Shown here piece by piece: positions 8,343 to 62,170 of a stretch of DNA of 64,000 nucleotides (positions are counted from its first letter, which is position 1; every line of letters begins with the position of its first letter). Where the stretch lies: NCBI GenBank assembly GCA_964016885.1, contig OZ024747.1, positions 38,626,001 through 38,690,000 of the forward strand, in the 5' to 3' direction. The translations under genes and the position numbers were made by a program. Source of the DNA: Eledone cirrhosa (lineage: Eukaryota). The notes below the pieces were generated by a model. It was not told the DNA's origin. It saw only the letters and a list, made by a program, of their open reading frames with translations, and did no database searches.

Positions 8343-8518
8343 GATAGATAGATAGATAGATAAATATACACGGGTGTGTATGATTGTGTATAGAAGATTA
8401 TATTAATAAGAGGAATTCCAACTTTGTCTGATTTACTCGTTTTATTTACAATCCTTTAAAATTTATAATGTTATTATAATGAAAGAGTATGATAGAATAT
8501 TAAATTCTAAGTGTTAAT

Positions 8519-8557
8519 TGAACAAGTACTTTCATGCGTTCGCAATCTTCAGGTTCA
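8519..8557 (-). ncRNA. Minimal hammerhead ribozyme in inverted pLTR
   Basis: tgaac-CTGAAGA-ttgcgaacgcat-GAAA-gtac-TT-gttca. Confidence 0.75.
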
Positions 8558-9438: not shown

Positions 9439-11625
9439 ATGCAAATTCTGTCAAGAGGACTGAAATTCACACCGACTCCAACAGTCAACCACCAAGAACT
9501 GAAGGAGGATACCCAAGAATTCTGTCGAAAATTACGTCTTGTAGAATTATTCGCTGATAAAAGTAATGAGAGTGATGAATCACTAGTAAAGAATAAATCA
9601 AATTTCACTCCGCCAAAAGGAAGAAATATCTTACTCGGCCAATACATTGACATCCTGTCTAAATTTCCCCTTAGACATAATACTAATGTTAGGCCAAACA
9701 TTAACAAATCAGAAATGTCTGCACTTAAACGTATACAAAATGATAAAACAATAATAATTAAACAAGCAGATAAAGGGGGTGCAGTTGTTATAATTGATAC
9801 TGAATACTACAAGGATTTGGTTGAGGAACAACTGAAAGACACAACATTCAATCATGAAATACCGTCAAATATAGACCACAACATCATGAAGAAGATCAAC
9901 AACCTGGCTTCAAAATACCACAACTCACTTACTGATAAGGAAAGAGACTACATCACCAATTTTGAGCCGAAACCCAGCAACCTGTATGGCCTACCGAAAG
10001 TTCATAAGTCAAAAGAAATACAACTGGCAGTAAGAGAACAAAACGGTGAGTACATTAAATTATTACACCCAAAAGACTTAAAACTTAGACCTATTATAGC
10101 TGGTCCAACATGCCCCACCCACCGTCTAAGCAATTTTGTTGACATTATTTTGAGACCACTATGTATTCACATACCCAGTTTCATCCGGGATGATATCGAC
10201 TTCCTGTCCCATCTTCCCAAAACCACTGAAACGAATTCACTTCTACTCAGTTTTGATTTTTTAAGCCTTTACACCAACATTACACATGATTTGGGAATAA
10301 AGGCGGTTAAATACTGGGTGGAAAAACATAGAGAAGTGATTCCCATCAGATTCACAGCGCCATTTATATTAGACGCAGTTAAACTTATTCTGGAAAACAA
10401 CACTTTCTTCTTCAATGGAAAGAATTACATCCAAATTAGAGGCACAGCGATGGGAACGAAGTTTGCTCCCGTTTACGCGAACTCTGTAATGGGATACTTA
10501 GAACAACAACTCTACCAAGAAAGAGAGGAAAAATATAGTACTGACTTTAGAAAGTACATTGACAAATCTTGGAAGAGATACCTTGATGACTGTTTCATCA
10601 TCTGGACAGAATCTCTAGATACTCTGGATGAGTTCAATATCCTCCTGAATAACCTACACCCATCTCTCCAATTCACAAAAGAGATGAATAGGACCAAATT
10701 ACCATTCCTAGATATAATGATAATCAAAAACGACACCACCATTACCACGGATATATATTATAAACACACAGACACCCATCAATATCTGAATTTTAAGTCG
10801 TGCCATCCACCTCATACAAAACGCAACATCCCATACTGCCTAGCCAGAAGAATTTGTACCATTGTAGAAGATACGAATACCAGGTACAAACGCCTAACAG
10901 AACTAAGAGAATTTTTGAACAAAGGAAAATACCCATCTCTACTTATAGAAAATGGCATACAGCGGGCTATAAGAATACCTATACAACAACTTAGGACAAA
11001 CCAAGGAAGAAGAAACCAAGAACTGGTCATACAATTTATAATGACACACAACCTATGTCACCAGAATATCTTCAACACTGCCAAAGCAAACCTACCAATC
11101 ACTGCTCAAAGTAATGAATTAAAAGGTTTAATCACAGATCGATCATTGACTCTTAGTAAAAGACAGCCCAAACTTTTGAAGCAATTACTAACAAAAGCAA
11201 AGTTTGACCTTAACAACAAAGACCAATCATTCACTGTATCTAAATGCAATGATAGTCGATGCGGCACATGTCAATCCATACACGCTGGTCAATATATGAA
11301 AACAAAAACTGGAAAAATATTCCCAAATGCAAATATGAACTGCAAAAGCAGAAATCTAATTTACTGCATTAAATGCCCGAATTGTGAAGAACTATATGTC
11401 GGTCAAACTGGAAATGCACTATCGGAACGTGCACGGATACACCGTCAACAAATCAGAGACCCAAATGTCCGTCAGATACCCCTAAGTAACCATCTAGCAA
11501 CATGTGGTCAGGGAATATTTATAATATTCCCATTCTACAAATTACACAGCCCAAGTGAAATCAAGAGAAAAATCAAAGAAAATAATTTTATTGATAAATT
11601 CAAACCCAAGCTAAATGAACAATAA
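9439..11625 (+). CDS. PLE polyprotein: reverse transcriptase + Cys linker + GIY-YIG endonuclease (728 aa, uninterrupted)
   Basis: LSRGLKFTPTP, ADKGG, LYGLPKVHK, RPII, GTAMG, RYLDD, LPFLD, CNDSRCGTC, NLIYCIKCPNC..YVGQT. Confidence 0.93.
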   Translation: MQILSRGLKFTPTPTVNHQELKEDTQEFCRKLRLVELFADKSNESDESLVKNKSNFTPPKGRNILLGQYIDILSKFPLRHNTNVRPNINKSEMSALKRIQNDKTIIIKQADKGGAVVIIDTEYYKDLVEEQLKDTTFNHEIPSNIDHNIMKKINNLASKYHNSLTDKERDYITNFEPKPSNLYGLPKVHKSKEIQLAVREQNGEYIKLLHPKDLKLRPIIAGPTCPTHRLSNFVDIILRPLCIHIPSFIRDDIDFLSHLPKTTETNSLLLSFDFLSLYTNITHDLGIKAVKYWVEKHREVIPIRFTAPFILDAVKLILENNTFFFNGKNYIQIRGTAMGTKFAPVYANSVMGYLEQQLYQEREEKYSTDFRKYIDKSWKRYLDDCFIIWTESLDTLDEFNILLNNLHPSLQFTKEMNRTKLPFLDIMIIKNDTTITTDIYYKHTDTHQYLNFKSCHPPHTKRNIPYCLARRICTIVEDTNTRYKRLTELREFLNKGKYPSLLIENGIQRAIRIPIQQLRTNQGRRNQELVIQFIMTHNLCHQNIFNTAKANLPITAQSNELKGLITDRSLTLSKRQPKLLKQLLTKAKFDLNNKDQSFTVSKCNDSRCGTCQSIHAGQYMKTKTGKIFPNANMNCKSRNLIYCIKCPNCEELYVGQTGNALSERARIHRQQIRDPNVRQIPLSNHLATCGQGIFIIFPFYKLHSPSEIKRKIKENNFIDKFKPKLNEQ

Positions 11626-12016
11626 TAACGCTTAGGGGTATTACGTCTATTATCACTATGACTACGACGACTAACAACAACAACAACAACAACAACAACA
11701 ATAATAATAATAATAAAAGTGATGTTGATGCTGATGATTAATAGAAAATGTTATTTTCATCATTTCTAAAAATAGCAAAACAATTGATGCTTTGGATATA
11801 ATTAATTATTGGTCGTTAGACATGCTCAACCAGCCGTGACGCTTAAACCAATCGGCTCTAGTAATTCAGTGAAACTACACACTGATTGGTCGAAATACAG
11901 TTTGCAAGACTTAGGATTCTGGAGCCACTTTTCGCTGTATAAAATGTATAAAAGGTAGTAAATTTACCCATCTTATTACCGTTGAAAATTGCAAACTTGA
12001 CTGTCACCACATATTA

Positions 12017-12055
12017 TGTACCTGAAGATTGCGAAAGCATGAAAGTACTTGTTCA
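12017..12055 (+). ncRNA. Minimal hammerhead ribozyme in 3' pLTR
   Basis: tgtac-CTGAAGA-ttgcgaaagcat-GAAA-gtac-TT-gttca. Confidence 0.7.
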
Positions 12056-12161
12056 ATTAACAATTAGAATTTCTGTCATACTATTTCATTATAATACCAT
12101 TATAAATTTTAAAGGATTGTAAATAAAACGAGTAAATCAGACAAAGTTGGAATTCCTCTTA

Positions 12162-12302
<141 letters not shown>

Positions 12303-16374: not shown

Positions 16375-16449
<75 letters not shown>

Positions 16450-16456
<7 letters not shown>

Positions 16457-16780
16457 ATACTTTGGGAGGGTCATGTTGCCAATAAGAAACACACGCACCA
16501 GTTGCTTTCACTTCAATTTATTATATATTTATAAATTTATAAATTTACAAATCTACAAACTTATAAATTTCTGGTTGGTTGGTTGGTTCCACAACCAGAT
16601 AGTTGTTTATATAAGTTTGTAGATTTGTAAATTTATAAATTTATAAATATATAATAAATTGAAGTGAAAGCAACTGGTGCGTGTGTTTCTTATTGGCAAC
16701 ATGACCCTCCCAAAGTATAACAATATCGGTTTCAACACACGATTTCAGATAAAGAATCTTGCTAAACAAATTCAGAAACG

Positions 16781-16785
<5 letters not shown>
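16450..16785. mobile_element. Miniature bipolar insertion made only of two 3' termini of the PLE family at 21539-23743 / 58146-62133
   Basis: 16450-16612 (-) and 16610-16785 (+) match the element termini; (TA)n both sides; older related copy at about 16100-16375. Confidence 0.8.
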
Positions 16786-16838
<53 letters not shown>

Positions 16839-21396: not shown

Positions 21397-23743
<2,347 letters not shown>

Positions 23744-23744
23744 A

Positions 23745-23780
<36 letters not shown>

Positions 23781-25359: not shown

Positions 25360-25521
<162 letters not shown>

Positions 25522-26675
25522 AATTAAGTTAAAAGTGTACATCCACATATGTATACTGAAATACTAGTATGCATATGAATACACACACGTGTACATATGT
25601 ACATGTACCGAGTTTTTCACTGGACATTTTACTGTGAGTGTTCAGCTAGTCTGTATGTAAACACACAGACAAAACGGTTTTTAGAGTCATACTGGTTTTC
25701 GAGGAAACACCTTTCCTCTATTCTCCAGTAAGCCAGACAGGAATATTGGACTACTTTCGATGTTGTTACATCTCATCAGCAATATTTACCTATCCTCCGG
25801 CCTTTCTAGAGAATCGTAAAAGCACATATCGTTATATGCCTTTTCTATGAAAATTAGTAGTGGGCAGACTAATTTGCATAGAGCGTGAGTACGTAGCGGT
25901 TCAGCGGAGACGATAAAAACAAATAACGAAACGAAATTAAATTTCGTTTCGTTTGTAACTCACTTTTGTATGACTGACGCTTAAACAATTAAGTTAAAAG
26001 TGTACATCCACATATGTATACTGAAATACTAGTATGCATATGAATACACACACGTGTACATATGTAGATGTACCGAGTTTTTCATTCACTGGACACTTTA
26101 CTGTGAGTGTTCAGCTAGTCTGTATGTAAACACACAGACAAACCGGTTTTTAGAGTCATACTGGTTTTCGAGGAAACACCTTTCCTCTATTCTCCAGAGA
26201 GCCAGACAGGAATATTGGACTAGTTTCGATGTTGTTACATCTCATCAGTAATATTTACCTATCCTCCGGCCTTTCTAGAGAATCGTAAAAGCACATATCG
26301 TTATATGCTTTTTCTATGAAAATTAGTAGTGAGCAGACTAATTTGCATAGAGCGTGAGTACGTACCGGTTCAGCGGAGACGATAAAAACAAATAACGAAA
26401 CGAAATTAAATTTCGTTTCGTTTGTAACTCACTTTTGTATGACTGACGCTTAAACAATTAAGTTAAAAGTGTACATCCACATATGTATACTGAAATACTA
26501 GTATGCATATGAATACACACACGTGTACACATGTAGATGTACCGAGTTTTTCACTGGACACTTTACTGTGAGTGTTCAGCTAGTCTGTATGTAAACACAC
26601 AGACAAACCGGTTTTTAGAGTCATACTGGTTTTCGAGGAAACACCTTTCCTCTATTCTCCAGAAAGCCAGACAGG

Positions 26676-26720
26676 AATATTGGACTAGTTTCGATGTTGT
26701 TACATCTCATCAGCAATATT
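26676..26720 (-). ncRNA. Hammerhead ribozyme (family B); copies at 25742-25786 and 26211-26255 each carry one substitution
   Basis: Reverse complement of the 27053 motif. Confidence 0.9.
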
Positions 26721-27052
26721 TACCTATCTACCGGCCTTTCTAGAGAATCGTAAAAGCACATATCGTTATATGCTTTTTCTATGAAAATTAGTAGTGGGCA
26801 GACTAATTTGCATAGAGCGTGAGTACGTACCGGTTCAGCGGAGACGATAAAAACAAATAACGAAACGAAATTAAATTTCGTTTCGTTTGTAACTCACTTT
26901 TGTATGACTGACGCTTAAACAATTAAGTTAAAAGTGTACATCCACATATGTATACTGAAATACTAGTATGCATATGAATACACACACGTGTACATATGTA
27001 GATGTACCGAGTTTTTCACTGGACACTTTACTGAAAGGCCGGAGGATAGGTA

Positions 27053-27097
27053 AATATTGCTGATGAGATGTAACAACATCGAAACTAGTCCAATATT
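27053..27097 (+). ncRNA. Canonical minimal type I hammerhead ribozyme (family B)
   Basis: aatattg-CTGATGA-gatgt.aaca.acatc-GAAA-ctag-TC-caatatt; palindromic ACTAGT, GUC site. Confidence 0.92.
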
Positions 27098-27517
27098 CCT
27101 GTCTGGCTTTCTGGAGAACAGAGGAAAGGTGTTTCCTCGAAAACCAGTATGACTCTAAAAACCGGTTTGTATGTGTGTTTACATACAGACGAGCTGAACA
27201 CTCACAGTAAAGTGTCCAGTGAAAAACTCGGTACATCTACATATGTACACGTGTGTGTATTCATATGCATACTAGTATTTCAGTATATATATGTGGATGT
27301 ACACTTTTAACTTAATTGTTTAAGCGTCAGTCATACAAAAGTGAGTTACAAACGAAACGAAATTTAATTTCGTTTCGTTATTTGTTTTTATCGTCTCCGC
27401 TGAACCGGTACGTACTCATGCTCTATGCAAATTAGTCTGCCCACTACTAATTTTCATAGAAAAAGCATATAACGATATGTGCTTTTACGATTCTCTAGAA
27501 AGGCCGGAGGATAGGTA

Positions 27518-27562
27518 AATATTGCTGATGAGATGTAACAACATCGAAACTAGTCCAATATT
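27518..27562 (+). ncRNA. Hammerhead ribozyme (family B)
   Basis: Identical to 27053-27097. Confidence 0.92.
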
Positions 27563-27853
27563 CCTGTCTGTCTTTCTGGAGAATAGAGGAAAGGTGTTTC
27601 CTCGAAAACCAGTATGACTCTAAAAACCGGTTTGTCTGTGTGTTTACATACAGACGAGCTGAACACTCACAGTAAAGTGTCCAGTGAAAAACTCGGTACA
27701 TCTACATATGTACACGTGTGTGTATTCATATGCATACTAGTATTTCAGTATACGTATGTGGATGTACACTTTTAACTTAATTGTTTAAGCGTCAGTCATA
27801 CAAAAGTGAGTTACAAACGAAACGAAATTGAATTTCGTTTCGTTATTTGTTTT

Positions 27854-27888
<35 letters not shown>

Positions 27889-30730: not shown

Positions 30731-30854
30731 AGAAGCAAAAGATTGCTTATTGTGATTCAGTTCTTGGTTAAGAAAGACAGTTTCATGGATGGTTTCATCG
30801 TTCGGTTAGGGGTAACTCCATAAGTCTGTAAGAATTCCGTTCAATCTTGGAGTA

Positions 30855-32328
<1,474 letters not shown>

Positions 32329-32939
32329 ATATATATATATATATATACACACACATACATATGTGTATCTCTTCTTATACGTGTGTATGAGTATTTATGG
32401 ATGTTTATGTGCGTGTGCATGTGTATGTATGTATATATATATACATACATTTATGTCAGGTCACCAGTTGGTGCTACTGGTAACATGTATCCCAGTACAA
32501 CATGGGAAGATAGTAATTGTCAAGAGGATTGTTCAAAAATTTGTTGTAAAGACAGTTGATTCTATCATGGCATTTAGTGGACGTTAGGGTAGGGGTAGCT
32601 GAACTTGCCAGTAGAACAAAAAGTGAGTGGGGGGAGCCCAGTCAAGCGTTGAAAGTGAAATCTATACAGCAGATTCTAAGCATAGTGTATATAAGGTCGA
32701 AAAAAGTGTACCGAAGAAGGGGAGGGGGTAGTTGAAAAAGTAGGTAAATCGAAAGGGAGTAAACAGACGAGCCATTATAAAGATGAGGAGATAATTATGT
32801 AAAAAAACAAATATATACACAAACAGCAATTTCTGGTTACTATTCCATCCCCACAATCCCCAAATCTCTCATTGGTATTGTAAAGCTATAGAAAAGTTTA
32901 ATAGGTGGAGAAAATGCTAAATACAGGATTGTAGTGAAA

Positions 32940-41280: not shown

Positions 41281-41406
<126 letters not shown>

Positions 41407-41644
41407 GAAGTTATATTTAATTTGTTAGGATACAACAAGCAAATATTTTTATAACTGATATAAAGCACTCAACACATTTTAGGAGTAAATATACAATATA
41501 TTAACAAATGGAAACTATATTTATAAAACCATATTTATTTCATTATACATATTTCAAAGACACCAAAGCAAATTATGGTGTGCTTTCATCTGATAAAATA
41601 TAATATAGATCAGTTTTATAAACAAGTATTGACATACCCTTAAA

Positions 41645-42560
41645 AATACTATAGTAAATTCTGTACAGCAACGCATTCTAGAATTTCAGCTAATAAGAAT
41701 ATTTTTGATGATAAAGCACATTATTACAACGAAGCGTTAGGTAGAGCTGGATATAGTAATAAAATTAAATACATTGATAATAATAATATAACAACTAACC
41801 ATAATTTTAACAACTATAATAGAAAACCTTACAATAATTCGAAAAACAAAAAAAGGAATAGAACTAGGAATATAATATGGTTTGCTCTTCCTTTCTCATT
41901 AAATATTAAAACTCCTATTGCTAAACTATTCTTTAAAGCTCTTGACAAATGCTTCCCTAGAACACATAGATATTATTTAATATCTAATAGACATATTATA
42001 AAATTAACTTATTCAACCACCAACAATTTAGCGCAGAATATTAATAGAATTAATAATAGAAACTTAAAACCTAACCAGAATACCATTAACACCCCAGCAA
42101 TATCCAATTTAATAACACGGCTCCTAGTAACTTGATTTTTTATAAATGTAACTGTAGAAACAAATATAACTCTCCGTTAAATAACAATTGTTTAGCTAAA
42201 AATATAGTATATAATTGTAATGTAAAATCTAATCTAAATTCATTTAATTATGTAGGTTCTACTCTCACATACTTCTAATCTCGTTTTAATAACCATAAAT
42301 GCACTTTTACGAATATAAATAACAAATCTTCAACGTCTCTATCTAGCTTACTATGGGACCTAAAATTAAAGAACATTAACTATTCTTTGCTTTGGAATAT
42401 TATTTCCAAATCTCCTCCATTCCATTCTTCTTCTGAAAAATGGTGCTCTTTGTATAGAGGAAATATTCGTTATATTAAGGAGCAAAAATTATGTGAATCT
42501 AAGGAACAATCTTTTCAGTTGCTGCAAACAGAGTAAATTCAACGTTGAAATATAAATTTA
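41645..42560 (+). pseudogene. Decayed Naiad-like PLE fragment
   Basis: RNIIWFALPFSLNIKT, KCNCRNKYNSPLNNNCLAKNIVYNC, YVGST. Confidence 0.75.
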
Positions 42561-43665: not shown

Positions 43666-43705
<40 letters not shown>

Positions 43706-44014
43706 TTCATGAGTAACCAATCTTAAAGAGAGAGATTGAGATAGTAGAGGAGATATGAGAGGAAAGATTGGTGAGTTAGTTAGAAGCCAAAGCGTAAAGG
43801 CATGTGCTCAATGTGCAATATGCAGTAGAAAGCAGCTAGGTGGCTGGGTTCATGCAGAGGTTAAGTGCGCAGAGCTGGAAATATTCATTAGTTAAGCAAA
43901 ACAAGACCACACATCTCACAAGAGAGACATTATTAAAAGATTGTCAACACATTTAGTTTGATGTAAGGAATATAGAGAATAATAATAAAAATAATATTAA
44001 TAATAATAATGCCC

Positions 44015-44135
44015 GTTTACAATTGTTTCGCTACTCCGTATTATATTTCTGGATCAGATGACTATGTATCATAATTGATCTGGTTCAGTTGAAAATAATT
44101 AACATATTTAAAAAAACAGAGTGGCTCATCGGAAC
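44015..44135 (-). ncRNA. Hammerhead with CCGATGA core and large loop II (second copy 47370-47490)
   Basis: gtt-CCGATGA-gccactctg...c(g/a)gagtagc-GAAA-caattg-TA-aac. Confidence 0.7.
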
Positions 44136-44502
44136 TCAAAGGAATATAAATTAAAATAATGTTACATAATATAATGTTCCTTATATTAGTTTTTACTATG
44201 GTGCCTTTGTTTCATCAGCTGTCAGCCATAATCAAGCAGTACTCATCTGTCGAGGCTGCATTGTGTGAGATCTGTCTATGGGTAACAAGATGGCTGCCAA
44301 AGGGCATATTTACCTTACTAATTAGAGGGTGGTTTCAGGGTAAGTAACTTCTCGAGAGATTAGAGATTGTGTGTATTTTATAGTTATTTGCTAGTATTTA
44401 AATTATTTAATTGAGAGACATCGTAGAGGAGGTAACTTATAATTATCGAGTTGTTCATAGCAATTTAACTTATTAGCTACAATTAGAGATGGGGCTACAT
44501 GA

Positions 44503-47009
44503 CTAAGTTGGGTCAAAAACTCTATTGGCTAAGGAATTAGCCCTTCGATGTTGACAGCTAATGGTTACCTCCGTTCTAACGTTAATTGGTAGAGGTCTTG
44601 ATAGAGTTATGTAATATGCTTCCGTAACACAGAGATCACAAGATTTCCTTCGTCCATTGAACGGTTGTACCCTAGCTACGATATCCCATTTTAGTGAGTG
44701 TTGAACTTTTTTTATTTTAAGGTTTTTAGTGAGCCTAGCTAGCGATGTCGAACATCTGTTGCTGGGGTCTCGGAAGGAAAAAGAGTGCCCGTTATAGCGT
44801 ACCTTAAAAGGGTTAGAGGTAGACCCGATATAAGAGCTGGTATTCGAAGCAGTCTCAACTGTGCACCTATAGACTATGTTGGGTGTCAGGCAGTGTCCAT
44901 TTAATGGGCATGCATTGGGGTACCGGCAGTTGCAGTTGCTTCTGCGGTTAGTGAGAGTAGGGTTATTTAACCTAAGCAGTTGGTCCGTACTAGAAGGATT
45001 AGATGGGGGAGGTGTACTACTAGAGTAATTATTGGTGTAGTGGTGTGGTGTATTTGATAGTGGTGGTGGTACCGCGGTGTGGGAGTTATAGTGTCTTAGC
45101 TTATGATGGTTACTGAACGCGATGTGGCTAGCTAGGTTAGGTGTAGGGGAGAATGAGATTTTAATGTTGTTTTTATTAAATAGTTTGTAATATTTATGGT
45201 TAGGGGGGAAGTGTTTGGATAGGATAGAGAAGAAGCGATTGGGGATATTAGTGGCTAGATTAGATGAGAATGGTGGGTTAAGCCAGGTGATATTTCTAGG
45301 CCTATTCCTTCTAGGGGTTCTAGTGGAGTTGGTAGGGGCCTTCCTAGGGTTATTATTACCTAGGGGTTTGTTATTTGTCATCCAATTTCTCATTCCTATT
45401 CTAGGGTTGATTCTTAGTTTGCTACTAGGAGTGGGGAGCAGGCCGCTGCCACCATTAAAGTTCACTGTATAGGTGCTGTTACTGCTAAAATTCCGGCGAA
45501 TCTAGCTATATGCTAAGGTATTTCTAGTTCTAGTGTTAAGTTTATTATGGTGAGTTGCTGTGTTATGGCATTTTGGTATGTAATAAATTGATTGTTTATT
45601 ACCAGATTTAGAGAGAGCCTTATTATAATATTGTGCGTGGTTTATAAATATCTCTTCATTTGCTGATAGCATTGAGATCCTATAGGAGATAGATTTGATT
45701 ACTGCTCTGATGACTGCCGGTGGGTGGTTAGAGTGTGGGCTAATATATGTGAGTATTTCGCCTGGTTTATGGTAAGGGTTATAAAGGTTATTGTTGAGAT
45801 CAAGGGTGACGTCTAGGAAGTTTACTACTTTATGGTTCAGCTCGATGGTGATAGAGAGACCGTTATTTTTGAAGAATCTATGAAATTGTTTCTTAAGCAA
45901 ATCGATTCCCCGATTAGTGCAATTGTGGACTGCAAATAGGCGCGTCGTCCCTGTATATTCCACCTTGCATGGGTTGGATTTCGGCTCTGATGTTACGTAA
46001 TAGGTAAATCCCAACTAAATCGGTGACTTGCGCAGTGTCACTTGAGCCCATCGTAATGTCAAAGTTATCTGTTCTACCTTTTCTAGTCCAGAGTGCTCCG
46101 TTGAATTCAATGATATTCTGCCTAGCCATGAGTATGATGTTAATCTCATTATTGGTTATGTCCGAGTTGGTGGTTGCTAGGGCTAGTGCTTTGTTGAGCA
46201 GTTCCGGGGTTATTGGGGCGTAATAGCTGTCTATATCAAATTGGATGAACTTCATAGATTGCTTGGACCTTAGATCGGAGAACCATTTGATGACTTGGCC
46301 GGTGTTGGACCACAACTTGTAGGTGGTATTATCCCGTAGCCCAGGGATTATCCTATCAAAGATGTTCTTGCTGATGCGGCCCAGGTCAGAAGTGGTTGGG
46401 CTTATGAGTCTAATGGATGAGTTCTCTATAAAGTTTGGCTTGTGGTCCTTGAGAGAGAACCTTGGGCTTGTTGGTGCATAAGGGTGGGTAAATCTATCCA
46501 AATGCAAGTCCTTAACCAAAGCCTGGGCTTTTCGGTTAAGTACGTTTACACTGGAGGGTGTAGTTTTTTAAATAGTTTTTGTTGAGTTCTTTAAGAACGA
46601 AAGATTTGTAAATATCATGAGTCATGGTGTATAGATGTTTGGTTTTGGCAGACATAACATGTAAGAGGTTGCTATCCTTAAATTTGTTTATAGTTGTCGC
46701 TAATATAGTGAGTAAGTTATTCCTGTGTCTATAATGTTTTTTGAATTTAATGCTGCTGATGAAGTTGAATAGAAGTTTCTCAAAAGGGTCCAGCCGGATG
46801 TTGTGTGTGGGGTTTTTGCATGTGGCAAATCCATATCTATTTGCTGTACTTCCGGCGCCAGGAGCAACCACACGGTCAAAGTGGTACGCTTTCCATCTTA
46901 TTCTTCGGACGAAAGAGTTGACACCCTGTATTAATAGTTTGAGGTATGTGTTTCTGTCCGGAATAGGCATGGAATTAAGTGATATTCTGAGTTCCTGTTT
47001 ACACAACAT
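44503..47009 (-). pseudogene. Frameshifted Naiad-like RT-GIY-YIG polyprotein
   Basis: RRIRWKA, LKDHK, QFDIDSYY, FDITMGS, GIYRDD, VNFLDVTL, CNCRYPNACPLNGHC, IVYRC..YIGST, CDLC across four ORFs. Confidence 0.88.
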
Positions 47010-48409
47010 GGTGACTTCTAACAGTAAATAGCTCAACTACGGGAGCTCAAGTGTACACAGTTCAAGAGTAACCAATCTTAAAGAGAGAGATTGAGATAGT
47101 AGAGGAGATATGAGAGGAAATATTGGTGAGTTAGTTAGAAGCCAAAGCGGAAAGACATGTACTCAATGTAAAATATTCAGTAGAAAGCAGCTAGGTGGCT
47201 GGGTTCATGCAAATGTTAGGTGCGCAGTGCTGGAAATATTCATTAGTTAAGCAAAACAAGACCACAAATCTCACAAGGAAGACATTATGAAAATATTGTC
47301 AACATATTTAGTTTGATGTAAGGAATGTAGAGAATAATAATAAAAATAATATTAATAATAATAATGCCCGTTTACAATTGTTTCGCTACTCTGTATAATA
47401 TTTCTGGATCAGATGACTATGTATCATAATTGATCTGGTTCAGTTGAAAATAATTAACATATTTAAAAAAACAGAGTGGCTCATCGGAACTCAAAGGAAT
47501 ATAAATTAAAATAATGTTACATAATATAATGTTCCATATATTAGTTTTTACTATGGTGCTTTTGTTTCATCAGCTGTCAGCCATAATCAAGCAGTAATCA
47601 TCTGTCGAGGCTGCATTGTGTGAGATCTGCCTATGGGTAACAAGATGGCTTCCAAAGGGCATATTTACCTTACTATTTAGAGGGTAGTTTCAGGGTAAGT
47701 AACTTCTCGAGAGATTAGAGATTGTGTGTATGTTATAGTTATGTGCACTCATTTTCCTTCCGAGACCCTAGCAACAGATGTTCGACATCGCTAGCTATGC
47801 TCATTAAAGACCTTAAATTAAACAAAGTTCAACACTCACTAAAATGGGATATCGTAGCTAGGGGCCAACCGTTCAATGGACGAAGGAAATCTTGTGATCT
47901 CTGTGTTACGGAAGCACATTACATAACTCTATCAATACCTCTACCAATTAACGATAGAACGGAGGTAACCATTAGCTGTCAACATCGAAGGGTTAATTCC
48001 TTCGCCAATAGAGTTTTTGACCCAACTCTAACTGTAGCCCATCTCTAATTGTAGCTACTAAGTTAAATTGCTATGAACAACTCGATAATTATAAGTTACC
48101 TCTCCTACATTGTCTCTCAATTAAATAATTTAAATATTAGCACATAACTATAAAATACACACAATCTGTAATCTCTCGAGAAGTTACCTCCCCTGAAACG
48201 ACCCTCTAATTAGTAAGGTAAATATGCCCTTTGGCAGCCATCTTGTTACCCATAGGCCGATCTCACACAATGCAGCCTCGACAGATGAGTACTGCTTGAT
48301 TATGGCTGACAGCTGATGAAACAAAGGCACCAAACGCGAGTTTCCAACAGACATGGTCGCATTCTTTTAAGGGTATGTCAATATTTGTTTATAAAACTGA
48401 TATATATTA

Positions 48410-48474
48410 TATTTTATCTGATGAAAGCGCACCATAATTTGCTTTAGTCTCCTTGAAATATGTATAATGAAATA
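48410..48474 (+). ncRNA. Minimal hammerhead ribozyme (same family as 1371)
   Basis: tattttat-CTGATGA...GAAA-tatgta-TA-atgaaata. Confidence 0.65.
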
Positions 48475-48526
48475 AATATGTTTTTATAAATATAGTTTCC
48501 ATTTGTTAATATATTATATATATATA

Positions 48527-48633
<107 letters not shown>

Positions 48634-49018: not shown

Positions 49019-49974
49019 AACGGAGGAAATGTGGTAAGGAACCAGGTGGATCATAACGCACCAAAGTACTCAATATTTAGGGTAGTAGAGTGGGTAATAG
49101 GTACGAGTAGGACCCGACGGCTGAGCTCAAGCCGTTTCGATAGCTAATTCTGGACTAAATGAACATTTTTATCCTGGTATTTGAATAGCCGAGCTTCTCA
49201 AGGGGTAATTCCATATATGGTAAAAGTGATTGTCACAAGGATTGGTCAAAAGTTTGTTGTTGAGACATAATAATTCTATGATGGCAATTTGTGGAGGGAA
49301 GGGGTAGCTGAACCTGCCAGTATGAGAAAGAGGGAGGAGGTGGAGGAGACCCAGTCATGCGTTGATAGTGCCGACTACAGCTGGGCATGAGGTCAAAGAA
49401 GATACTAGGGATTACGTCACCGTAATATATACTCGGTTTGTTATTTATACCTCTTAAAAGGGTCTCATTATAATTCCGTCCCACCTAGTAAACCTTTCTT
49501 TAGCCTAGCAGTACCAGTGAGAGACTTAGGTCGTAGTAACCAGAAATTGTTTATTTATTTATTTTTTGTTTTTTTACATTTAATTGCTTTTTAACACTCT
49601 CGGTATTTTTCTATATATTTACCCCATATTGTTTTAATTGTTTCGACTTCCTCCCTCTCCCCCTCCCTAATATCTTCTTTGACCTCATGCCCAGCTGTAG
49701 TCGGCACTATCAACGCATGACTGGGTCTCCTCCACCCCCTCCCTCTTTCTCATACTGGCAGGTTCAGCTACCCCTTCCCTCCACAAATTGCCATCATAGA
49801 ATTATTATGTCTCAACAACAAACTTTTGACCAATCCTTGTGACAATCACTTTTACCATATATGGAATTACCCCTTGAGAAGCTCGGCTATTCAAATACCA
49901 GGATAAAAATTTTGATTTAGTCCAGAATTAGCAGTCAAAACGGCTTGAGCTCAGCCGTCGGGGTCCTACTCGTT

Positions 49975-49978
<4 letters not shown>
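49019..49978. mobile_element. Bipolar pair of non-coding 3' ends with hammerheads (49112-49206 -, 49869-49964 +); miniature version at 25193-25365
   Basis: Arms about 49098-49410 / 49665-49978; acccc-TTGAGAA...GAAA-cggcttgagctcagccg-TC-gggt. Confidence 0.75.
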
Positions 49979-50029
<51 letters not shown>

Positions 50030-53198: not shown

Positions 53199-54269
53199 AT
53201 AAGGAATGTCGAAAACGTGTAACTAGAGTCCTAGTCAATTAGAACATTTAGAGTACATAATTGTTATTAGTGCCAAAGGCATCATGTGGAGAGTCGGGTG
53301 TTAAAAAGATGTTCCGCTTGAAATAACACAAATACAGGCAGCACAGGTTTGAAGTATAATAGCTATAAGTAAAAGTAAAAAGCACAAGCAAAAAAATCAC
53401 AGGCAAAAAAACACAGGCACAGAAGTTATGAGCAAGGACGATTGGTGTACAATGCAGGAGTCAATACAGTCAATAATACATGTATGAGGAAAGAGTTATA
53501 ATACAGTTGAAATAAACCTATTTTGTGTGGGGTTGTTAAAGCCTGTTATATGTGTTATAAATGGTTAAGATAGTGTGCAATTTGTTAGAGAGGCATGTGG
53601 TGCTAATGTAGGTATGTTTTATGTAAGGTGTAATGTAAAGAACTAGATAGAGTTGGGTATGTGATTTTCATTTAAGTGTTTTTGTGTTGTAGTTCGTATT
53701 TATGTGCCTGTATTGTTTGTTACTCACAGCTATTAACCATGGGATTATTTTGAGTCTTTTATAGTCAATAGGTGTTTTTTTGTTAAATGTAAATTCCCCC
53801 GAATTACTGGCCATGTTGTTATTTTAGGTATATTATCTTATGCATTTTTTATCTGTAAATTATCTTTGCTGGGGTTATTAAGATATTGGTAAACCGTTAG
53901 GTTCCTAATTTTATAAGTTTACACAGGAAGTTGTAAAGAGGGTTAATAACAAAGGGAGGTAATTAATGTTGTTGATAAATTAAGGGTTGTTATAATATTG
54001 TGATAGTGTTATAAATTAATCTATATAGAGTATATCAAATATAAAATATTCTTGGTTATACAATTGCTATCTTTTAAACTTGTGTGGAGGTGGTTAAAAC
54101 ATTTTTTAATTTAGTTTATTAAAACTAGATAGTTTTTACATAGTTTGTATATGCATGTATAATATAAGGTATATACATATGTGTGATAATGTATAGACAT
54201 ATATGTACACACACATATATTTGCACACACTCATACACATACACACACATACACCACACACACATATAT

Positions 54270-54322
<53 letters not shown>

Positions 54323-54610
54323 TATATATATATATACGATATTAAACAAATGTAAACTATATTTATAAAACCATATTTATTTCGTTATATATATTTCTGG
54401 GATATCATATTAAAAATATGGTATGCCTTCCTCAGACAAAATACAATACATAAGCTGTTTTATAAATAATTAGTGACATACCTTGTAATAATGCAACTTC
54501 CATTTAAAAAGTTGATTTGGTAGTAAACCTACTCCAGAAACTGTTGAGTGCTTTTATATCAGTTATAAAATATTTACTCGTTGTAACCCAACAATCTTAA
54601 AAAAAACTTT

Positions 54611-54669
<59 letters not shown>

Positions 54670-55469
54670 ATAATAATTAAATTGAAGACTAAAATCCAAA
54701 GAGGGCTCGATAAGGAAAATATATATCAAATATATAAGAACCGTAGAGCAAATATTTATTAAAATAACAGATTAAAGTTTAAGCAAAGAATCGCTGCTTT
54801 CACCCATAACGGGTACGTATTTATTTACTTTTATACGTTTATATAATTATTTGTTTATTTGTACACAAGCATTCACACACACACATATTTATGTGTGCGT
54901 GGTTTTGTATACCCATGGTAAGGTTTTGCGTATGCTTGTGTATGTACGTATCTGTTTGCGTGTATGTATTATTTGTTTCTATTATGTCTGTATAGTATTT
55001 ATTTACTTTGTTCTTAACTTTGTAGCGGAGATTCATTTGGTCTCCTAGTTAGAATTTTAGTCTACGATTTCTCCTATACCATTTACGTGGTTTTGTCTTT
55101 GCGTGCTATTGTTCTCCACGCTCCACATATGACTTATTATCTTCGTTTTTTCGTTCATTGCCAGAGAACGTCTCTATGCACCACATAAGAGAACATTAGT
55201 CTACGACCTCTTTTATACCATAAACGTGGTTTTGTCTTTGCGCGTAATTGTTTTTCACCGCTCCTATTAATGACGTATTATTCGTTTTTCCCCGTTCTTT
55301 GCCAGCGAACGTAACCACGAACCAAAGTATCGTCTTCCTGTCTTCCTCCGTTTGCAATGTTTTTTGAAATATCCAGTTCTGCGTTTACAGATTGACTTTG
55401 TTAGTTTCAGAAGATCCCGTTAAGGGTGAAAGCAGTGATTCTTTGCTTAAACTTTAATCTGTTATTTTA

Positions 55470-55505
<36 letters not shown>

Positions 55506-55510
<5 letters not shown>

Positions 55511-56790
55511 CAAATAACGAAACGAAATTAAAATTCGTTTCGTTTGTAACTCACTTTTGTATGACTGACGCTTAAACAATTAAGTTAAAAACGTACATCC
55601 ATATATGTATACTGAAATACTAGTATGCATATGAATACACACACGTATACATATGTAGATGTACCAAGTCTTTCACTGGTTACTTTACTGTGAGTATCCA
55701 GCTATTCTGTATGTAAACACACAGACAAACCGGTTTTTAGAGTCATACTGGTTTTTGAGGAAACACCTTTCCTCTATTCACCAGAAAGCCAGACAAGGAA
55801 TATTGAACTAGTTTCGTTGTTGTTACAACTCATCAGCAATATTTACATATCTACCGGCCTTTCTGGAGAATCGTAAAAGCACATATCGTTATATGCTTTT
55901 TCTATGAAAATTAGTAGTGGGCAGACTAATTTGCATAGAGTGTGAGTACGTACCGGTTCAACGGAGACGATAAAAACAAATAACGAAACGAAATTAAATT
56001 TCGTTTCGTTTGTAACTCACTTTTGTATGACTGACGCTTAAACAATTAAGTTAAAAACGTACATTCATATATGTATACTGAAATACTAGTATGCATATGA
56101 ATACACACACGTATACATATGTAGATGTACCAAGTCTTTAACTGGTTACTTTACTGTGAGTATCCAGCTATTCTGTATGTAAACACACAGACAAACCGGT
56201 TTTTAGAGTCATACTGGTTTTTGAGGAAACACCTTTCCTCTATTCACCAGAAAGCCAGACAAGGAATATTGAACTAGTTTCGTTGTTGTTACAACTCATC
56301 AGCAATATTTACCTATCTACCGGCCTTTCTGGAGAATCGTAAAAGCACATATCGTTATATGCTTTTTCTATGAAAATTAGTAGTGGGCAGACTAATTTGC
56401 ATAGAGTGTGAGTACGTACCGGTTCAACGGAGACGATAAAAACAAATAACGAAACGAAATTAAATTTCGTTTCGTTTGTAACTCACTTTTGTATGACTGA
56501 CGCTTAAACAATTAAGTTAAAAACGTACATCCATATATGTATACTGAAATACTAGTATGCATATGAATACACACACGTATACATATGTAGATGTACCAAG
56601 TCTTTCACTGGTTATTTACTGTGAGTATCCAGCTATTCTGTATGTAAACACACAGACAAACCGGTTTTTAGAGTCATACTGGTTTTTGAGGAAACACCTT
56701 TCCTCTATTCACCAGAAAGCCAGACAAGGAATATTGAACTAGTTTCGTTGTTGTTACAACTCATCAGCAATATTTACCTATAATCGTAAA
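55506..56790 (-). mobile_element. Retrozyme-like family B array 2: about 2.75 units of 466 bp
   Basis: Unit starts 55506, 55972, 56438; HHRs at 55799-55843, 56265-56309, 56730-56774. Confidence 0.88.
55799..55843 (-). ncRNA. Hammerhead ribozyme, family B variant (GUU site)
   Basis: aatattg-CTGATGA-gttgt.aaca.acaac-GAAA-ctag-TT-caatatt. Confidence 0.88.
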
Positions 56791-57620
56791 TTAGTTGATA
56801 TGTTTGAAGTAGTGAGACGAGAATCTATGGTAATGCGGACAGGTTTAGAAGATCTCTGATTGCCTATTTAGTAGGCTAAGGTTAGTGTGAATATTTTTAG
56901 ACTCGAGGATGCAAAGGTTACACAATTTGTTAGGTGGTCTATATGAAGGGGCCGTAGCTATCACTTCTCATTTTAAGGTGTATGGTATATTACTTAATTT
57001 TAATGAGTGTATGTATGTGTGTATTGCGGTTACGTTGCTAAGTTTAGGGTTCCTGAAGATTGAAGGTGTCAATTATATCTGGTCTTAAAGCTATTCGATG
57101 TAGAGCATTTATATACTTTCGAGATGTGATTGGCGGTTACAGTACCGGAGTAGACAATGTCTTTAATTAGGCAGTTCTTATTTAATGGACATGTCCTGTT
57201 AGCCCTACAATTACAATTGTTTTGTTTACTAGTATACTGGTTAAGGGTGTGTGCATTTGAGTGATTGTTTCTGTTTCTACTTCTAGTGTTATGATTATGG
57301 TGAGTGTTATTACTATTTGTATTATTAGTATGACTTGCTGTAGTCTTGTACTGTGTTGTTGTTCACGTTATTTCTATGCTGGACATTATTACTTTGGTGG
57401 AATTTGAAGTACTTTTAAATCTTTCTCTTGTTAGTGCTTGCTATAGGGTCTGCTATGTTAGGTGTGGTGGAGTAGGATATTTTAATTGTGTTTTTGTTAA
57501 ATAGGTTGTGGTATTTATGGTTACTTGGGAAGTTTTTGTCTAGAGTAGAGAAGAAAGCTTTAGGTATGTTTGTTGATATATTTTAGTTGAACGAAGGGTT
57601 AAAAATATGTTACTTCTTCT
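56790..57620 (-). pseudogene. Decayed Naiad-like PLE fragment
   Basis: NNCNCRANRTCPLNKNCLIKDIVYS on the minus strand. Confidence 0.7.
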
Positions 57621-58145
57621 TCTATTATTCTTATGGTTGTTATTCATACTACTGTTTAGTGTGGTATTAGGTTCCTTCTTATCTATATTTTGGTTTCTGT
57701 GGTGTTTCTTAGGGTTATTGCTGTGGCGTGATTTAAATTTTTCATGGCGCCCTTTGTACAGGGTTTGGACTTTCAATACTATGATCATATTTACTTTTAT
57801 TCATGGCCATGTTGTGTAAAATTATATTAGGTTGTCTATGGGTGGTTGACGATTTAGGTTTAAACTTAATTTAATTTTATCTCAAGAGGAATATCTTCCT
57901 AAGTCCTGACTCTCCACATGATGCCTTTGACACTAATAACAATTATGTACCCTAAATGTTCTAAATGACTAGGATTCTAGTTACAACTGGTTTTTCCACA
58001 TTATACATATTGTTAGCACACCAAACACTTAAATTGGGTTTATATTTTAATATAACCTAATGTTTGTTGAGTGAGATGGTTACCAGTCAGAATTTAGCTT
58101 TAAACTATCTCTGTTATTGTATTAAATATATGTATATATATATAT

Positions 58146-61100
58146 TTCGTTTCTGAATTTGTTTAGCAAGATTATTTATCTGAAATCGTGTGTTGAAACC
58201 GATATTGTTATACTTTGGGAGGGTCATGTTGCCAATAAGAAACACACGCACCAGTCGCTTTCACTTCAATTAATTATAATAAATTTATAATAAATTTATA
58301 AATTTATAAATTTCTGGTTGATTGGTTGGTCCCACAACCAGATAGTTGTTTATATATTATCATAGTTCTTTTGTCACACACTCTGTGACCTCTTCAATGA
58401 CTGGGGATTCCTTTCTTTGTTTTTGTGCCTCTCCTTTGTTCTGTCCTACGTCATTTCTCTGCGTGTGTTGTTTCTGTGTGTGTGTTGTGTGCTCAGTCTG
58501 CGCATGCGCCACATCCGGGTGTCTGTGTGTGTTTATGTTCATTTATTTATTTGTTTATTTACATATTACTGGTTGGTTGTTTGTTCTATGTGTGTGTGTG
58601 TTTTCATTTTGTCCTTAATTGTAAGTTGTGATGTTGCTGTTCCACTCATATTTTCTATTTAATTTTGGTTGTAATTCTTTTATGTTTATTGCCTCTGTGA
58701 TTTGTCTAATCATTGCGTCTTTTCTGTGTGTAGATTCTATTTTTATTTCTATGTTCTCTAATTTACCCTTGTGTTCTATTTTAGCATGTTGGTAGAGTAC
58801 AGATGATTCTTTACTATCTTGAAGGTCTCGCCAGTGTTCATTTATCCGTTCCCCTACACTACGAGCTGTCTCACCTATGTACACTATATTTTTGTCTCTA
58901 CATTGTCCTTCAGTACATCTTATGCTATACACTACATTTCTAGTTTTACAGTTAATATGGGGGCTTATTTTACAGGTTATACATTTCTTATCTTTACATG
59001 AGGGTCTTTGAAAAGGGTATGTCTTGCTAATAAGTGTTTTTACGGAGGTACCTGGTCTTTCTACTATCTTAATATTGAGTTTATGTTTATCTATGGCCCT
59101 TCTAAATGTGTAAGCTAATTCACCACTAGGGGTTGTATCGATGAACATTAAACTCTGGTATTTATTGCTATCATACCATGAGTTTATTCTATTAGCCTTG
59201 TTCCTAGTTCTTTCTATTCTATTCCAAAATGTGCTCCTATACAAGGGGCAGGTATCATTTATGTCATTATTTACCATTTTTTCCCATTTGGTTCTGGCTC
59301 CTCTATACACTCTGATTTTATCTCTCTGATTGTAGCCAGAGAACTGCATACGGTGGATGAAGTGTTGTATGTGTCTCTCTAGTTCTTCGGGGTTGCACAT
59401 GCGGGACACGTTTCTCATCACCCGTACCAAATCCGCAATCAGTATGTTGATTTTGGTATGGTCCGAAATGGCCGAGTTTCGGTGGATCAGATGTTTGGAA
59501 GTCATGGGTTAGGCATAATGGGAATGGAGGATGTGTTTTTTGTTATTAATGGTATCTAACCAGAGCTCTGTGTCTAGTACAGGTAATCGATGGTTGGGGT
59601 GTTTAATTGGGTAGTCTATAGTAACTCTAATGCTCTGGTGGATGGAGTTAGCTATTTGCTGGATGCTTTCCATTGTGTTTTCTCTAGTTCCTGACTGTTC
59701 TCTAGTGGGGGTGTCTTAACTACGATCTTTATATCATCAACATAGCGGGAGTACATTTTCAGGGTTAAGGGGTCTTCTAATTGTTCTTTAAGTTTAAGTT
59801 TAATCTACTGTCCCACCATACCATGAATAAGTTAGCTATGTCGCCTGCAATGCTAACACCAATGGGTGCTCCTTCCTCTTGGGCATATGTTTTTCCATTA
59901 AATTTGAACATATGTTCCTTAAGGGTTAATTTTATGCTGGCCCCTACCGCATGTGCAATCATTTTCTTCAGTTCATCGTGGTTTTCGGGTGTCCGTATGG
60001 CTCTGGTCCACCCGTTCCATCTATCTGTGTGGGTTTTCTTGGCCATTGAGGTAATGGTAGGTCTGCCTCTTGCTGGTCTTGTAGGGCACAGGTTGCTAAG
60101 GTCATATATGTCTAGGTAATTATTACTATAGGTAAGTTTAAGTAGGAGTCCCAACTCACTGGTATCAATCCCACGGAACTCAACATTGCTCTCAGTGATC
60201 CTTTCTACGCATTTCTCCACAGCAAAATCCACGTCAATAGATCGATACAGGGACACAACATCCATACTACCTATTATGCAGTTTGTTAGGTCCCTAGATC
60301 GGTTACTCTCGCCGATTCTGCTGAGGAGGTCCTCCGTGCTGTCACTGCCCGTGTTATGGTCTTTATGGAAGTTGTTGGCCGTCCTTTTGTTGGGCTGCAT
60401 TATATTCGTCGACATCACCATATGGGCATTGAGGGCTTTTTCACTATCCTCATGCTCCTGTGGTGTTACCTCTCTTGTGTTAGTGATGTGGGGTTGCATT
60501 GCCTGGATGTAGTTTGGCAGGCTGTCAACCGACATTCTGCCAGACTTGTCTGTTGGAAAGCATGCTCTCTCTCCATTTCGCGAGCGCTGTATGAGCTTAC
60601 GCAAGCCATTTGCAGATATTTCTCCCAGTTGTTAGGCCTCCAATCTATTATGCTTCTTGCTATGCTGTTCTATAATATTTCTAAGTTCGGATCTAGCTAT
60701 ACTAAATTGTGCTTCTGTTTGTTCATCGACGTGCGACGGCAATTGCGTGCGTTTGTTAAATGGTAAAGTCGTGGCGTGGACTCGTCACAGGTCGAACGAT
60801 TTATCGGAGGGATTATAAAAAGTAGAGTTCCAGGCTGCTGCTTTATGTGTACTAGTGCTATTGTTATTGTTAGTTGTGTTGTTTCTATTTCTATTTCAAC
60901 CAACAGCCTCATGGTTGTTTCTATGTCTCTCATAATTACTCTTGTCTAAACGTATCCCGCATGTGCAACCCCGAAGAACTAGAGAGACACATACAACACT
61001 TCATCCACCGTATGCATTTCTCTGGCTACAATCAGAGAGATAAAATCAGAGTATATAGAAGAGCCAGAACCAAATGGGGAAAAATGGTAAATAATGACAT

Positions 61101-62133
61101 AAATGATACCTGCCCCTTGTATAGGAGCACATTTTGGAATAGAATAGAAAGAACTAGGAACAAGGCTAATAGAATAAACTCATGGTATGATAGCAATATA
61201 TACCATAGTGTAATGCTCAACGATACAACCCCTAGAGGTGAATTAGCTTACAAAATTAGAAGGGCCCTAGATAAACATAAACTCAATAATAAGATAGTAG
61301 AAAGACCAGGTACCTCCGTAAAAACACTTATTAGCAAGACATACCCTTTTCAAAGACCCTCATGTATAGATGAGAAATGTATAACCTGTAAAATAAGCCC
61401 CTATATTAACTGTAAACTAGAAATGTAGTGTATAGCATAAGATGTACTGAAGGACAATGTAGAGACAAAAATATAGTGTACATAGGTGAGACAGCTCGTA
61501 GTGTAGGGGAACGGATAAATGAACACTGGCGAGATCTTCAAGATAGTAAAGAATCATCTGTACTCTACCAACATGCTAAAATAGAACACAAGGGTAAATT
61601 AGAGAACATAGAAATAAAAATAGAATCTACACACAGAAAAGACGCAACGATTAGACAAATCACAGAGACAATAAACATAAAAAATTACAACCAAAATTAA
61701 ATAGAAAATATGAGTGGAACAGCAACATCACAACTTACAATTAAGGACAAAATGAAAACGCACACACACATAGAACAAACAACCAACCAGTAACATGTAA
61801 ATAAACAAACAAATAAAGGAACATAAACACACACATACACCCGGATGTGGCGCATGCGCAGACTGAGCAAACAACACACACACAGAAACAAAATGGCGTA
61901 GGACAGGACAAAGGAGAGGCACAGAAATAAATAAAGGAATCCCCAGTCACTGAAGAGGTCACATAGTGTGTGACGAAAGAACTATGACAATATATAAACA
62001 ACTATCTGGTTGTGGAACCAACCAACCAACCAGAAATTTATAAATTTATAAATTTATTATAATAAATTGAAGTGAAAGCAACTGGTGCGTGTGTTTCTTA
62101 TTGGCAACATGACCCTCCCAAAGTATAACAATA
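58146..62133. mobile_element. PLE (same family as 21539-23743) bipolar insertion: 58146-60945 (-) + 60946-62133 (+)
   Basis: PTDKSG, GSMDVVSLY, GAPIGVSIAGDIAN, GIY-YIG on both arms; frameshifts; inverted UTRs. Confidence 0.9.
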
Positions 62134-62135
62134 TA

Positions 62136-62170
<35 letters not shown>

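Follow-up and report, generated by a model that had tools for sequence, protein, structure and literature searches.

A family of hammerhead retrozyme arrays in Eledone cirrhosa with two fixed ends, a conserved fold and a sense-strand A-to-G signature

Two arrays of one non-coding, hammerhead-bearing repeat lie in the 64,000-nt stretch of Eledone cirrhosa DNA analysed here (hereafter the window). The first-pass annotation, made from the letters alone, had noticed that the hammerheads of the second array differ from those of the first by a double change in stem II that keeps the base pair. It had proposed that selection acts on the RNA structure and that each array was copied from one template molecule, as expected for rolling-circle copying of a circular RNA. 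What can such a paired change tell about the element, and how did its units come to stand in a row?

Tandem repeat detection (55504-56781) found array 2 as 2.7 copies of a 466-nt period with 99% identity, and its three hammerhead cores lie in consecutive units at a spacing of 465-466 nt (Table 1). Each hammerhead comprises a 7-bp stem I, CUGAUGA, a 5-bp stem II (GUUGU/ACAAC) with an AACA loop, GAAA, a single-pair stem III, A-[CUAG]-U, whose CUAG cap is palindromic, and GUU. On folding, the hammerhead was the minimum-energy structure of its region (hammerhead 2, identical in sequence to hammerhead 1), with the flipped stem II pair at 56294/56283. Units are arranged purely head to tail, consistent with a lack of LTR architecture, and neither array contains a stop-to-stop frame of at least 110 aa. 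With unit positions numbered from the predicted cut on the RNA strand, array 2 ends at site B (position ~302), which falls at 55504, and site A (228-233) falls at 55573-55578. Its 5' side is without a TA run. The filler at that junction is likely to be a short template jump of the reverse transcriptase, and relatives of the adjoining Penelope-like copy, 89-92% identical to it, run on as an AT-rich stretch at the junction. Array 1 has five cores with GAUGU/ACAUC and GUC; its minus arm of 1517 nt ends at site A, its plus arm of 824 nt ends at site B, and (TA)n is found on both sides.

Table 1. Features of the two arrays and their surroundings, in positions of the window.
Feature	Position	Strand	Description
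Array 2, subfamily B2 (U-A stem II, GUU)	55504..56781	-	single-armed insertion, 2.7 units of 466-nt non-coding putative retrozyme
Hammerhead 1, type I	56730..56774	-	predicted cut between 56737/56736; core CUGAUGA from 56767
Hammerhead 2, type I	56265..56309	-	predicted cut between 56272/56271; core CUGAUGA from 56302
Hammerhead 3, type I	55799..55843	-	predicted cut between 55806/55805; core CUGAUGA from 55836
Tail between the two fixed 3' ends	55504..55578	-	contains 13-bp hairpin
(AT)18 target tract	55470..55506		at 3' end of array 2
Near-private A-to-G, unit position 214 (aaaacgtacat)	55592, 56058, 56524	-	candidate editing scar
Near-private A-to-U, unit position 26	55780, 56246, 56711	-	fixed, 3/3 units
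Filler at array 2 5' junction	56782..56790	-	9 nt identical to unit positions 395-403
Decayed older Penelope-like copy (GIY-YIG end + 3' UTR)	56790..57400	-	adjoins array 2
Array 1, subfamily B1 (A-U, GUC)	25517..27856		two-armed head-to-head insertion

Judged by its sequence features, the element is almost certainly an animal (metazoan) non-LTR retrozyme. Such retrozymes carry a complete type I hammerhead in two or more successive units, as array 2 does, and the family is dispersed in many copies: in a search of the 3.0-Gb genome, the 37-nt ribozyme motif has 5,103 exact matches in its U-A form and 2,497 in its A-U form, and a reversed control pattern has none, which places the matches far beyond chance. 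The 466-nt unit lacks an ORF with reverse transcriptase (RT) and GIY-YIG domains; such an ORF lies elsewhere in the window. The family shares many features with metazoan non-LTR retrozymes as portrayed in the accessible text of Cervera and de la Pena 2020 (PMC7229834) and Li, Clavereau and Pollet 2026 (10.64898/2026.07.22.740005): a tandemly repeated non-coding unit that holds a single type I hammerhead, a low GC content, a copy number in the thousands, a strongly self-paired predicted circle in which the ribozyme is free to fold, and co-occurrence with Penelope-like elements. A single-pair stem III with a palindromic tetraloop is also found in axolotl HHR_Amex1 (PMC7229834), and the unit length is above the 170-400 nt given in PMC7229834 and inside the 51-972 nt given in 10.64898/2026.07.22.740005. 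Head-to-head, two-armed insertions that end at two fixed sites, and an A-to-G signature on the sense strand, both described below from genomic DNA, do not appear in the accessible parts of these two papers. Likewise, a literature search of main texts, few of them from subscription journals, returned no report of two-armed retrozyme insertions or of editing scars in genomic copies. An Rfam scan of the 64-kb window gave no match at gathering score.

How specific to array 2 is its ribozyme variant? The contrast between the two arrays was described correctly at the outset: all three array 2 units have the U-A stem II and GUU, the five array 1 cores have A-U and GUC, and the stem II form, the GUU junction and three further motifs (aaaacgtacat, ccaagtcttt and agacaagg) are each seen three times in array 2 and are missing from array 1. 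The core, stem I and ACUAGU, reported as unchanged, mostly are, although two units of array 1 deviate in stem I or in ACUAGU. In contrast, the notion that these variants are array-specific is contradicted by the thousands of exact genomic copies of the U-A motif, and only one of the three further motifs, aaaacgtacat, is nearly private. Among 179 fetched regions, the U-A stem was found in 81, ccaagtcttt in 45, agacaagg in 115 and aaaacgtacat in 2, one of which is array 2; an A-to-U motif at unit position 26, absent from the original list, was found in 4. At position 214, a letter other than that of array 2 makes up 370,007 of the 370,020 of summed contig depth in run X1. The paired change in stem II marks the whole subfamily B2, not array 2, and a single compensatory pair is by itself ordinary and proves little.

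The regions fall into set 1, 104 regions picked by similarity, ribozyme motif or length, and set 2, 75 further regions that were nearly all picked by 3' end motif and were fetched after the editing hypothesis had been noted. A rearranged locus, C1:76150200, was omitted from the variant-spectrum, pair-breaking, tree, junction, length and haplotype analyses, and C1:26559700 was also omitted from one analysis. A sister retrozyme family of ~468 nt, homologous to family B, has 10,471 exact ribozyme motifs genome-wide (e.g. L038:540-1007 and L190:4400-4879). It has U-U at the stem II base, a GUA cut triplet, an internal TA tract and the same two-end architecture.

An insertion tree rooted on a third subfamily, B3 (~87% identical), is a ladder, with A-U/GUC followed by A-U/GUU and then by U-A/GUU, from which it follows that GUU came first and separately and that the stem II flip took place once, on the trunk of the tree. 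GUU also occurs without the flip, in 9 of 47 scorable A-U insertions. Mismatched stem II forms amount to one A-A and three U-U units genome-wide, and as none of these four is fixed in its own array, no amplified mismatch intermediate survives. A U-U unit at C1:149585116, basal to the U-A clade, was considered as a fossil intermediate and rejected: the innermost unit of its array is A-U, and thus the mismatch was not fixed in the template. Selection against mismatches and a one-step template-switch repair are both compatible with the flip. According to the accessible part of 10.1101/2021.04.15.439925, template switching can produce compensatory changes in one step, and the lack of an amplified intermediate fits such a repair, as does the finding that, between the most similar A-U and U-A haplotypes, there are few differences beyond the two stem II sites. 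Hairpin repair by a single template switch is one half of a rather unlikely explanation that needs neither ADAR nor selection on intermediates; its other half, which concerns A-to-G changes, is taken up below. In the account that we prefer, the flip would have arisen once in the replicating lineage and been retained since changes in the lineage tend to preserve the fold, so that it now marks B2.

Selection on RNA structure, the first of the two original inferences, is supported across the whole unit by the avoidance of pair-breaking changes, not by the stem II pair alone or by an excess of double changes. Folded as a circle, the unit reaches a z score of -12.7 against 40 shuffles, and the hammerhead is present in the fold. 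We took the fold from one B subfamily group and tested it on the other, comparing the two B subfamilies that lie furthest apart. The 42 substitutions disrupt 2 of the 134 confident pairs, where 14.7 would be expected at random placement (0 of 5,000 permutations), and in the reverse direction 1 pair is broken against 13.2 expected. Double changes between these subfamilies number 1 against 0.57 expected (P 0.44), and 2 against 0.59 in reverse (P 0.11). Lineage variants, defined as common to at least 4 insertions, break pairs in 12 of 66 cases vs 236 of 542 for single-unit mutations (p 5e-5; p 0.006 for transversions and 0.065 for transitions alone). Further compensated pairs are 36:45, 151:204 and 110:125, the last of which is outside the minimum-energy fold. 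In the sister family, both sides have changed at 3 of 5 counted stem I pairs and 3 of 5 stem II pairs, relatedness being ignored. As for the 23 pairs changed on both sides, against 7.7 when shuffled, this count is inflated by relatedness and comes mostly from two sister-family rows.

The second inference, one template per array, also finds support, although the variants first cited for it are mostly subfamily markers. One template or one source per insertion is the rule, because just 2 of 158 insertions include a stretch deviating at three or more lineage-diagnostic sites, the other 156 being haplotype-uniform. The family supports both inferences, through evidence other than that originally given. 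The expected clustering of units by insertion is incomplete: 28 of 56 insertions are closest to themselves, with 15 ties and 13 closer to another; per unit, 252 of 365 are closest to their own insertion, with 78 ties and 35 closer to another; and by raw distance, within-arm distance is smaller than that to the nearest other insertion in just 29 of 73 cases. Mixed insertions include C1:21396000, which has unlike arms, and C744, in which a B1 piece is joined to B2 units. In the latter (L267, G000:C744:10500-18500), the innermost 1.2 units are B1-type and the outer ten B2-type, and the switch might reflect a template switch, recombination or misassembly.

The ends of the arms are informative about the mode of insertion. 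Of 170 arm 3' ends, 161 fall at site A (222-235) or site B (298-304), which are ~70 nt apart, and 149 have a TA run behind them; genome-wide, an exact match to the site-B end with adjoining TA occurs 1,767 times. The 58 two-armed insertions in which both ends are canonical are without exception head-to-head, each ending once at A and once at B. The inverted second arm and the tail at one end are family-wide features, array 2 itself having one arm. In the sister family, 22 and 28 ends fall at two sites ~59 nt apart, and a coding Penelope-like family of the window has the same two-end layout, with ends and tail of ~55 nt. As for the target-site duplications of such retrozymes, which when present are of >4 bp, insertion into (TA)n hides any duplication.

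The same architecture is known from GIY-YIG Penelope-like elements (PLEs), for which the accessible text of Craig et al. 2021 (PMC8557442) and Frangieh et al. 2024 (PMC11167929) describes an inverted 5'-truncated second copy, a tail at one end, two internal starts, a (TA)n or AT-rich target and a type I hammerhead. The two-end layout, inverted copies, one-sided tail and (TA)n bias are given in PMC8557442, and PMC11167929 reports that a PLE enzyme in vitro cleaves AT-rich DNA on both strands and extends both, and that its two internal start sites on the RNA delimit the tail. As the footprints of the retrozyme closely match those of PLEs, mobilisation by a Penelope-type enzyme is very probable. 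Unlike PLEs as described in these sources, the retrozyme has no ORF, its tail is ~70 nt long instead of 30-40 nt, and each arm is made of many head-to-tail monomers. A search for an autonomous partner with the retrozyme tail, or with a pLTR homologous to the retrozyme, gave no match to coding elements within the 64-kb window.

Most of the window consists of TA-flanked insertions nested in one another's TA tracts. The Penelope-like family mentioned above is found at 21449-23778, 58123-62170 and 16400-16830, with head-to-head arms, 3' ends ~55 nt apart and (TA)n flanks, and its copy at 21449-23778 carries a variant hammerhead core (CUGAAGAG) at 21742 and 23487. A fairly intact Penelope-like element, with a 775-aa open frame for RT and GIY-YIG domains, occupies 9298-11622 (plus strand), with inverted arms at 8268-8981 and 11592-12296. 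We assigned no clade to the Penelope-like fragments, since Pfam gave no family for 5 of the 6. A short TA-flanked fold-back family (943-1612, 41283-41647, 48365-48631 and 54264-54482) displays CUGAUGA...GAAA around an enlarged stem II region (1379 and 48418) and is possibly a further hammerhead variant. Other TA-flanked inverted elements with two offset ends lie at 30853-32333, 43699-48332, 49097-49979 and 54622-55495.

What was the template of an arm? In the set chosen by 3' end, 83 arms extend as far as the first cut junction, and just 2 of them end at it; 2 of 111 5' ends coincide with the cut, against 1.7 expected, and 58 of 111 arms are longer than one unit. Of the 608 junctions in both sets, 582 are exact. 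Leaving out short pieces had falsely suggested an accumulation of 5' ends at the cut (9 vs 3.7). Because the arms read through the cut site, the template must have been continuous there, i.e. a circle or an uncut multimer. It is very unlikely that the insertions began short, from cut linear monomers copied with end-to-end jumps, and that tandem duplication and conversion of the DNA afterwards made them longer and more uniform: besides the missing stops and the exact junctions, this would not fit the finding that length is unrelated to age, as judged by internal divergence (rho -0.06, n=77), nor the youngest insertions, whose two inverted arms are identical to each other and long. In four insertions with lengths of 3.3-9.2 kb, there is no internal substitution. 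That explanation can nevertheless call on the C744 switch interval from B2 to B1, which includes the cut site, and on the periodic subset variants of older arrays, which do reveal local duplication. In older long arrays, variants in subsets of units, often periodic, are found 75 times on one arm vs 9 times on both; DNA-level duplication therefore also lengthens arrays, and older long ones were reshaped further in this manner. Long arrays with higher-order periodicity (3-4, 6, 7) on one arm only were seen at L111, L105, L108-L109 and L088, and we regard them as retrozyme arrays turning satellite-like via local duplication.

The other continuous template would be a long multimeric RNA, transcribed from a homogeneous source array and left uncut, with a slow or dispensable ribozyme and no circle being read. 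Junction read-through fits it equally well, and homogeneous source arrays of up to ~18 units per arm exist. In the accessible parts of the respective sources, ribozymes with a single-pair stem III cleave weakly as monomers in amphibians (PMC7229834), 8 of 9 Xenopus dimers did not cleave (10.64898/2026.07.22.740005), and the PLE enzyme in vitro uses mainly unprocessed RNA (PMC11167929), which counts against the reading of circles. We nonetheless hold an uncut multimer to be unlikely. The catalytic core is conserved across family B and the sister family, subset variants are rarely found on both arms, and the multimer accounts neither for a founder with three clustered A-to-G changes in every unit, none of them present in the parent lineage, nor for 18-unit arms if the founder was short, so that a monomer step is needed somewhere. 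A circular monomer is the likely template on these sequence patterns. In run X4, whose kind is unrecorded, one 496-nt contig closes on itself, as either a tandem array or a circle would.

The three A-to-G changes just mentioned define a very young clade, whose identical arrays are unusually long. It had appeared private to one 20-unit insertion and is actually found in 69 units of seven insertions (G000:C1:30831200-30841199, C18:30949000-30963000, C1:322550000, C6:54091500, C1:85311500, C410 and C744), all of which were fetched. Apart from some small indels and the foreign B1 piece of C744, their units are identical, and what separates them from the parent lineage is one added A and the three A-to-G changes. 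None of the seven has a fixed variant of its own. The three letters are almost unseen in runs X1 and X2, whose contigs cannot show absence. Because one haplotype is common to seven insertions, fixation in an array is no proof of a separate circle per insertion, and the argument that edits private to an insertion prove one circle each is weakened. For the same reason, 'private in the sample' can mean a small sublineage, and the 91 fixed events considered below are not all independent. Homogeneous source arrays exist, and for any one daughter a multimeric transcript of such a source is a possible template. However, as the arms of the clade range from <1 to ~18 units with no substitution among units, the clade needs a step from monomer to multimer: either the founder was long and was born with all three changes in each of its units, or it was short and produced daughters far longer than itself. 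The simplest account is copying by rolling circle, with very rapid expansion at the DNA level as the alternative, and the clade suggests current activity and arrays that may be born long. Rolling-circle copying, as initially proposed, is thus favoured by junction read-through and by the zero divergence of this clade.

Which kinds of change become fixed in an insertion may tell more about the template. We called rare variants fixed when they were present in every covering unit of an insertion, and read their direction on the RNA strand. In set 1, A-to-G makes up 14 of 37 fixed vs 26 of 383 single-unit changes (p 7e-7), and in set 2, used as a replicate, 18 of 54 vs 20 of 159 (p 0.0016), i.e. 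32 of 91 vs 46 of 542 when pooled. These 32 events fall at 26 sites, with recurrent positions at 259, 273 and 336-345, and 59 of the 91 fixed variants are on both arms. The excess is biased towards the sense strand: U-to-C accounts for 13 of 91 fixed vs 67 of 542 single-unit changes, giving 32 A-to-G vs 13 U-to-C among fixed variants. A 5' G neighbour precedes 1 of 32 fixed vs 10 of 46 single-unit A-to-G changes (p 0.02), and in 6 insertions these changes cluster by two or three. The motif aaaacgtacat is itself one of them. In the sister family, A-to-G represents 10 of 28 fixed vs 10 of 161 single-unit changes (p 7e-5), 5 of the 10 coming from one locus, and the 11 cases on both arms include 3 A-to-G vs 3 U-to-C. 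A rare fixed variant of any kind is present in just 53 of 120 multi-copy insertions, and as A-to-G represents only 18 of 71 changes on inner branches of the tree (G-to-A 14, U-to-C 13), editing does not clearly dominate long-term change. Sublineages represented by L156:3966-4434, L189:1190-1658, L080:1440-1907 and L159:671-1138 have several A-to-G changes in one hairpin (340-357), as well as A-U pairs turned into G-C at 33:48 and 36:45, which fits a path of editing followed by compensation.

The strand, clustering and avoided 5' G of the A-to-G changes match the preferences of ADAR, and with good confidence we attribute the excess to this enzyme on the basis of these patterns. Viroid-like and HDV-like hammerhead circular RNAs are likewise small, highly paired, ribozyme-bearing and evolving under structural constraint, and HDV RNA is edited by ADAR. 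Unlike them, the retrozyme has DNA copies encoded in a genome and a hammerhead on one strand only, and it lacks the U-to-C excess that would point to an edited minus strand. Could the A-to-G excess instead stem from a transcription-coupled or polymerase bias filtered for G-U wobble, the second half of the explanation introduced with the stem II flip? A wobble filter should favour C-to-U as well, yet the ratio of A-to-G to C-to-U is 32:10 among fixed vs 46:73 among single-unit changes (p 3e-5). The clustering and the avoided 5' G also speak against a bias, an argument that bears on A-to-G and not on the flip. For retrozymes, RNA editing is mentioned once as a possibility in the accessible text of PMC7229834 and 10.64898/2026.07.22.740005.

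Taken together, the retrozyme would be transcribed, its RNA likely being cut to monomers by the ribozyme itself and circularised by ligation; the circles would likely be edited A-to-I by host ADAR, and a Penelope-like RT would likely copy them repeatedly into (TA)n DNA from the two fixed internal sites. We consider this whole chain, in which the component steps are interdependent, to be reasonably likely. It is tempting to go further and to view the arrays as the fossil trace of a Penelope enzyme that worked from both ends of a DNA break and reverse-transcribed single RNA circles, edited by ADAR, in rolling-circle fashion, with editing as a main heritable mutagen, a ratchet from A-U through G-U to G-C and selection on the fold of the circle. 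We put this forward as a tentative proposal, to which we give slightly less than even weight.

The spread of retrozymes through circular RNA and a Penelope enzyme has been proposed and not demonstrated, going by the accessible text of PMC7229834 and 10.64898/2026.07.22.740005; the latter adds phylogenetic support and favours local amplification of the tandems. The present family provides sequence footprints for three steps of this cycle, namely the class of the enzyme, its start sites and the passage of the template through edited RNA. The exact start sites, the young seven-member clade and the recurrent edit positions make an in vitro Penelope test of rolling-circle copying possible, along the lines described in the accessible part of PMC11167929. 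If the proposal is true, RNA editing by the host would be a main heritable mutagen of the element.
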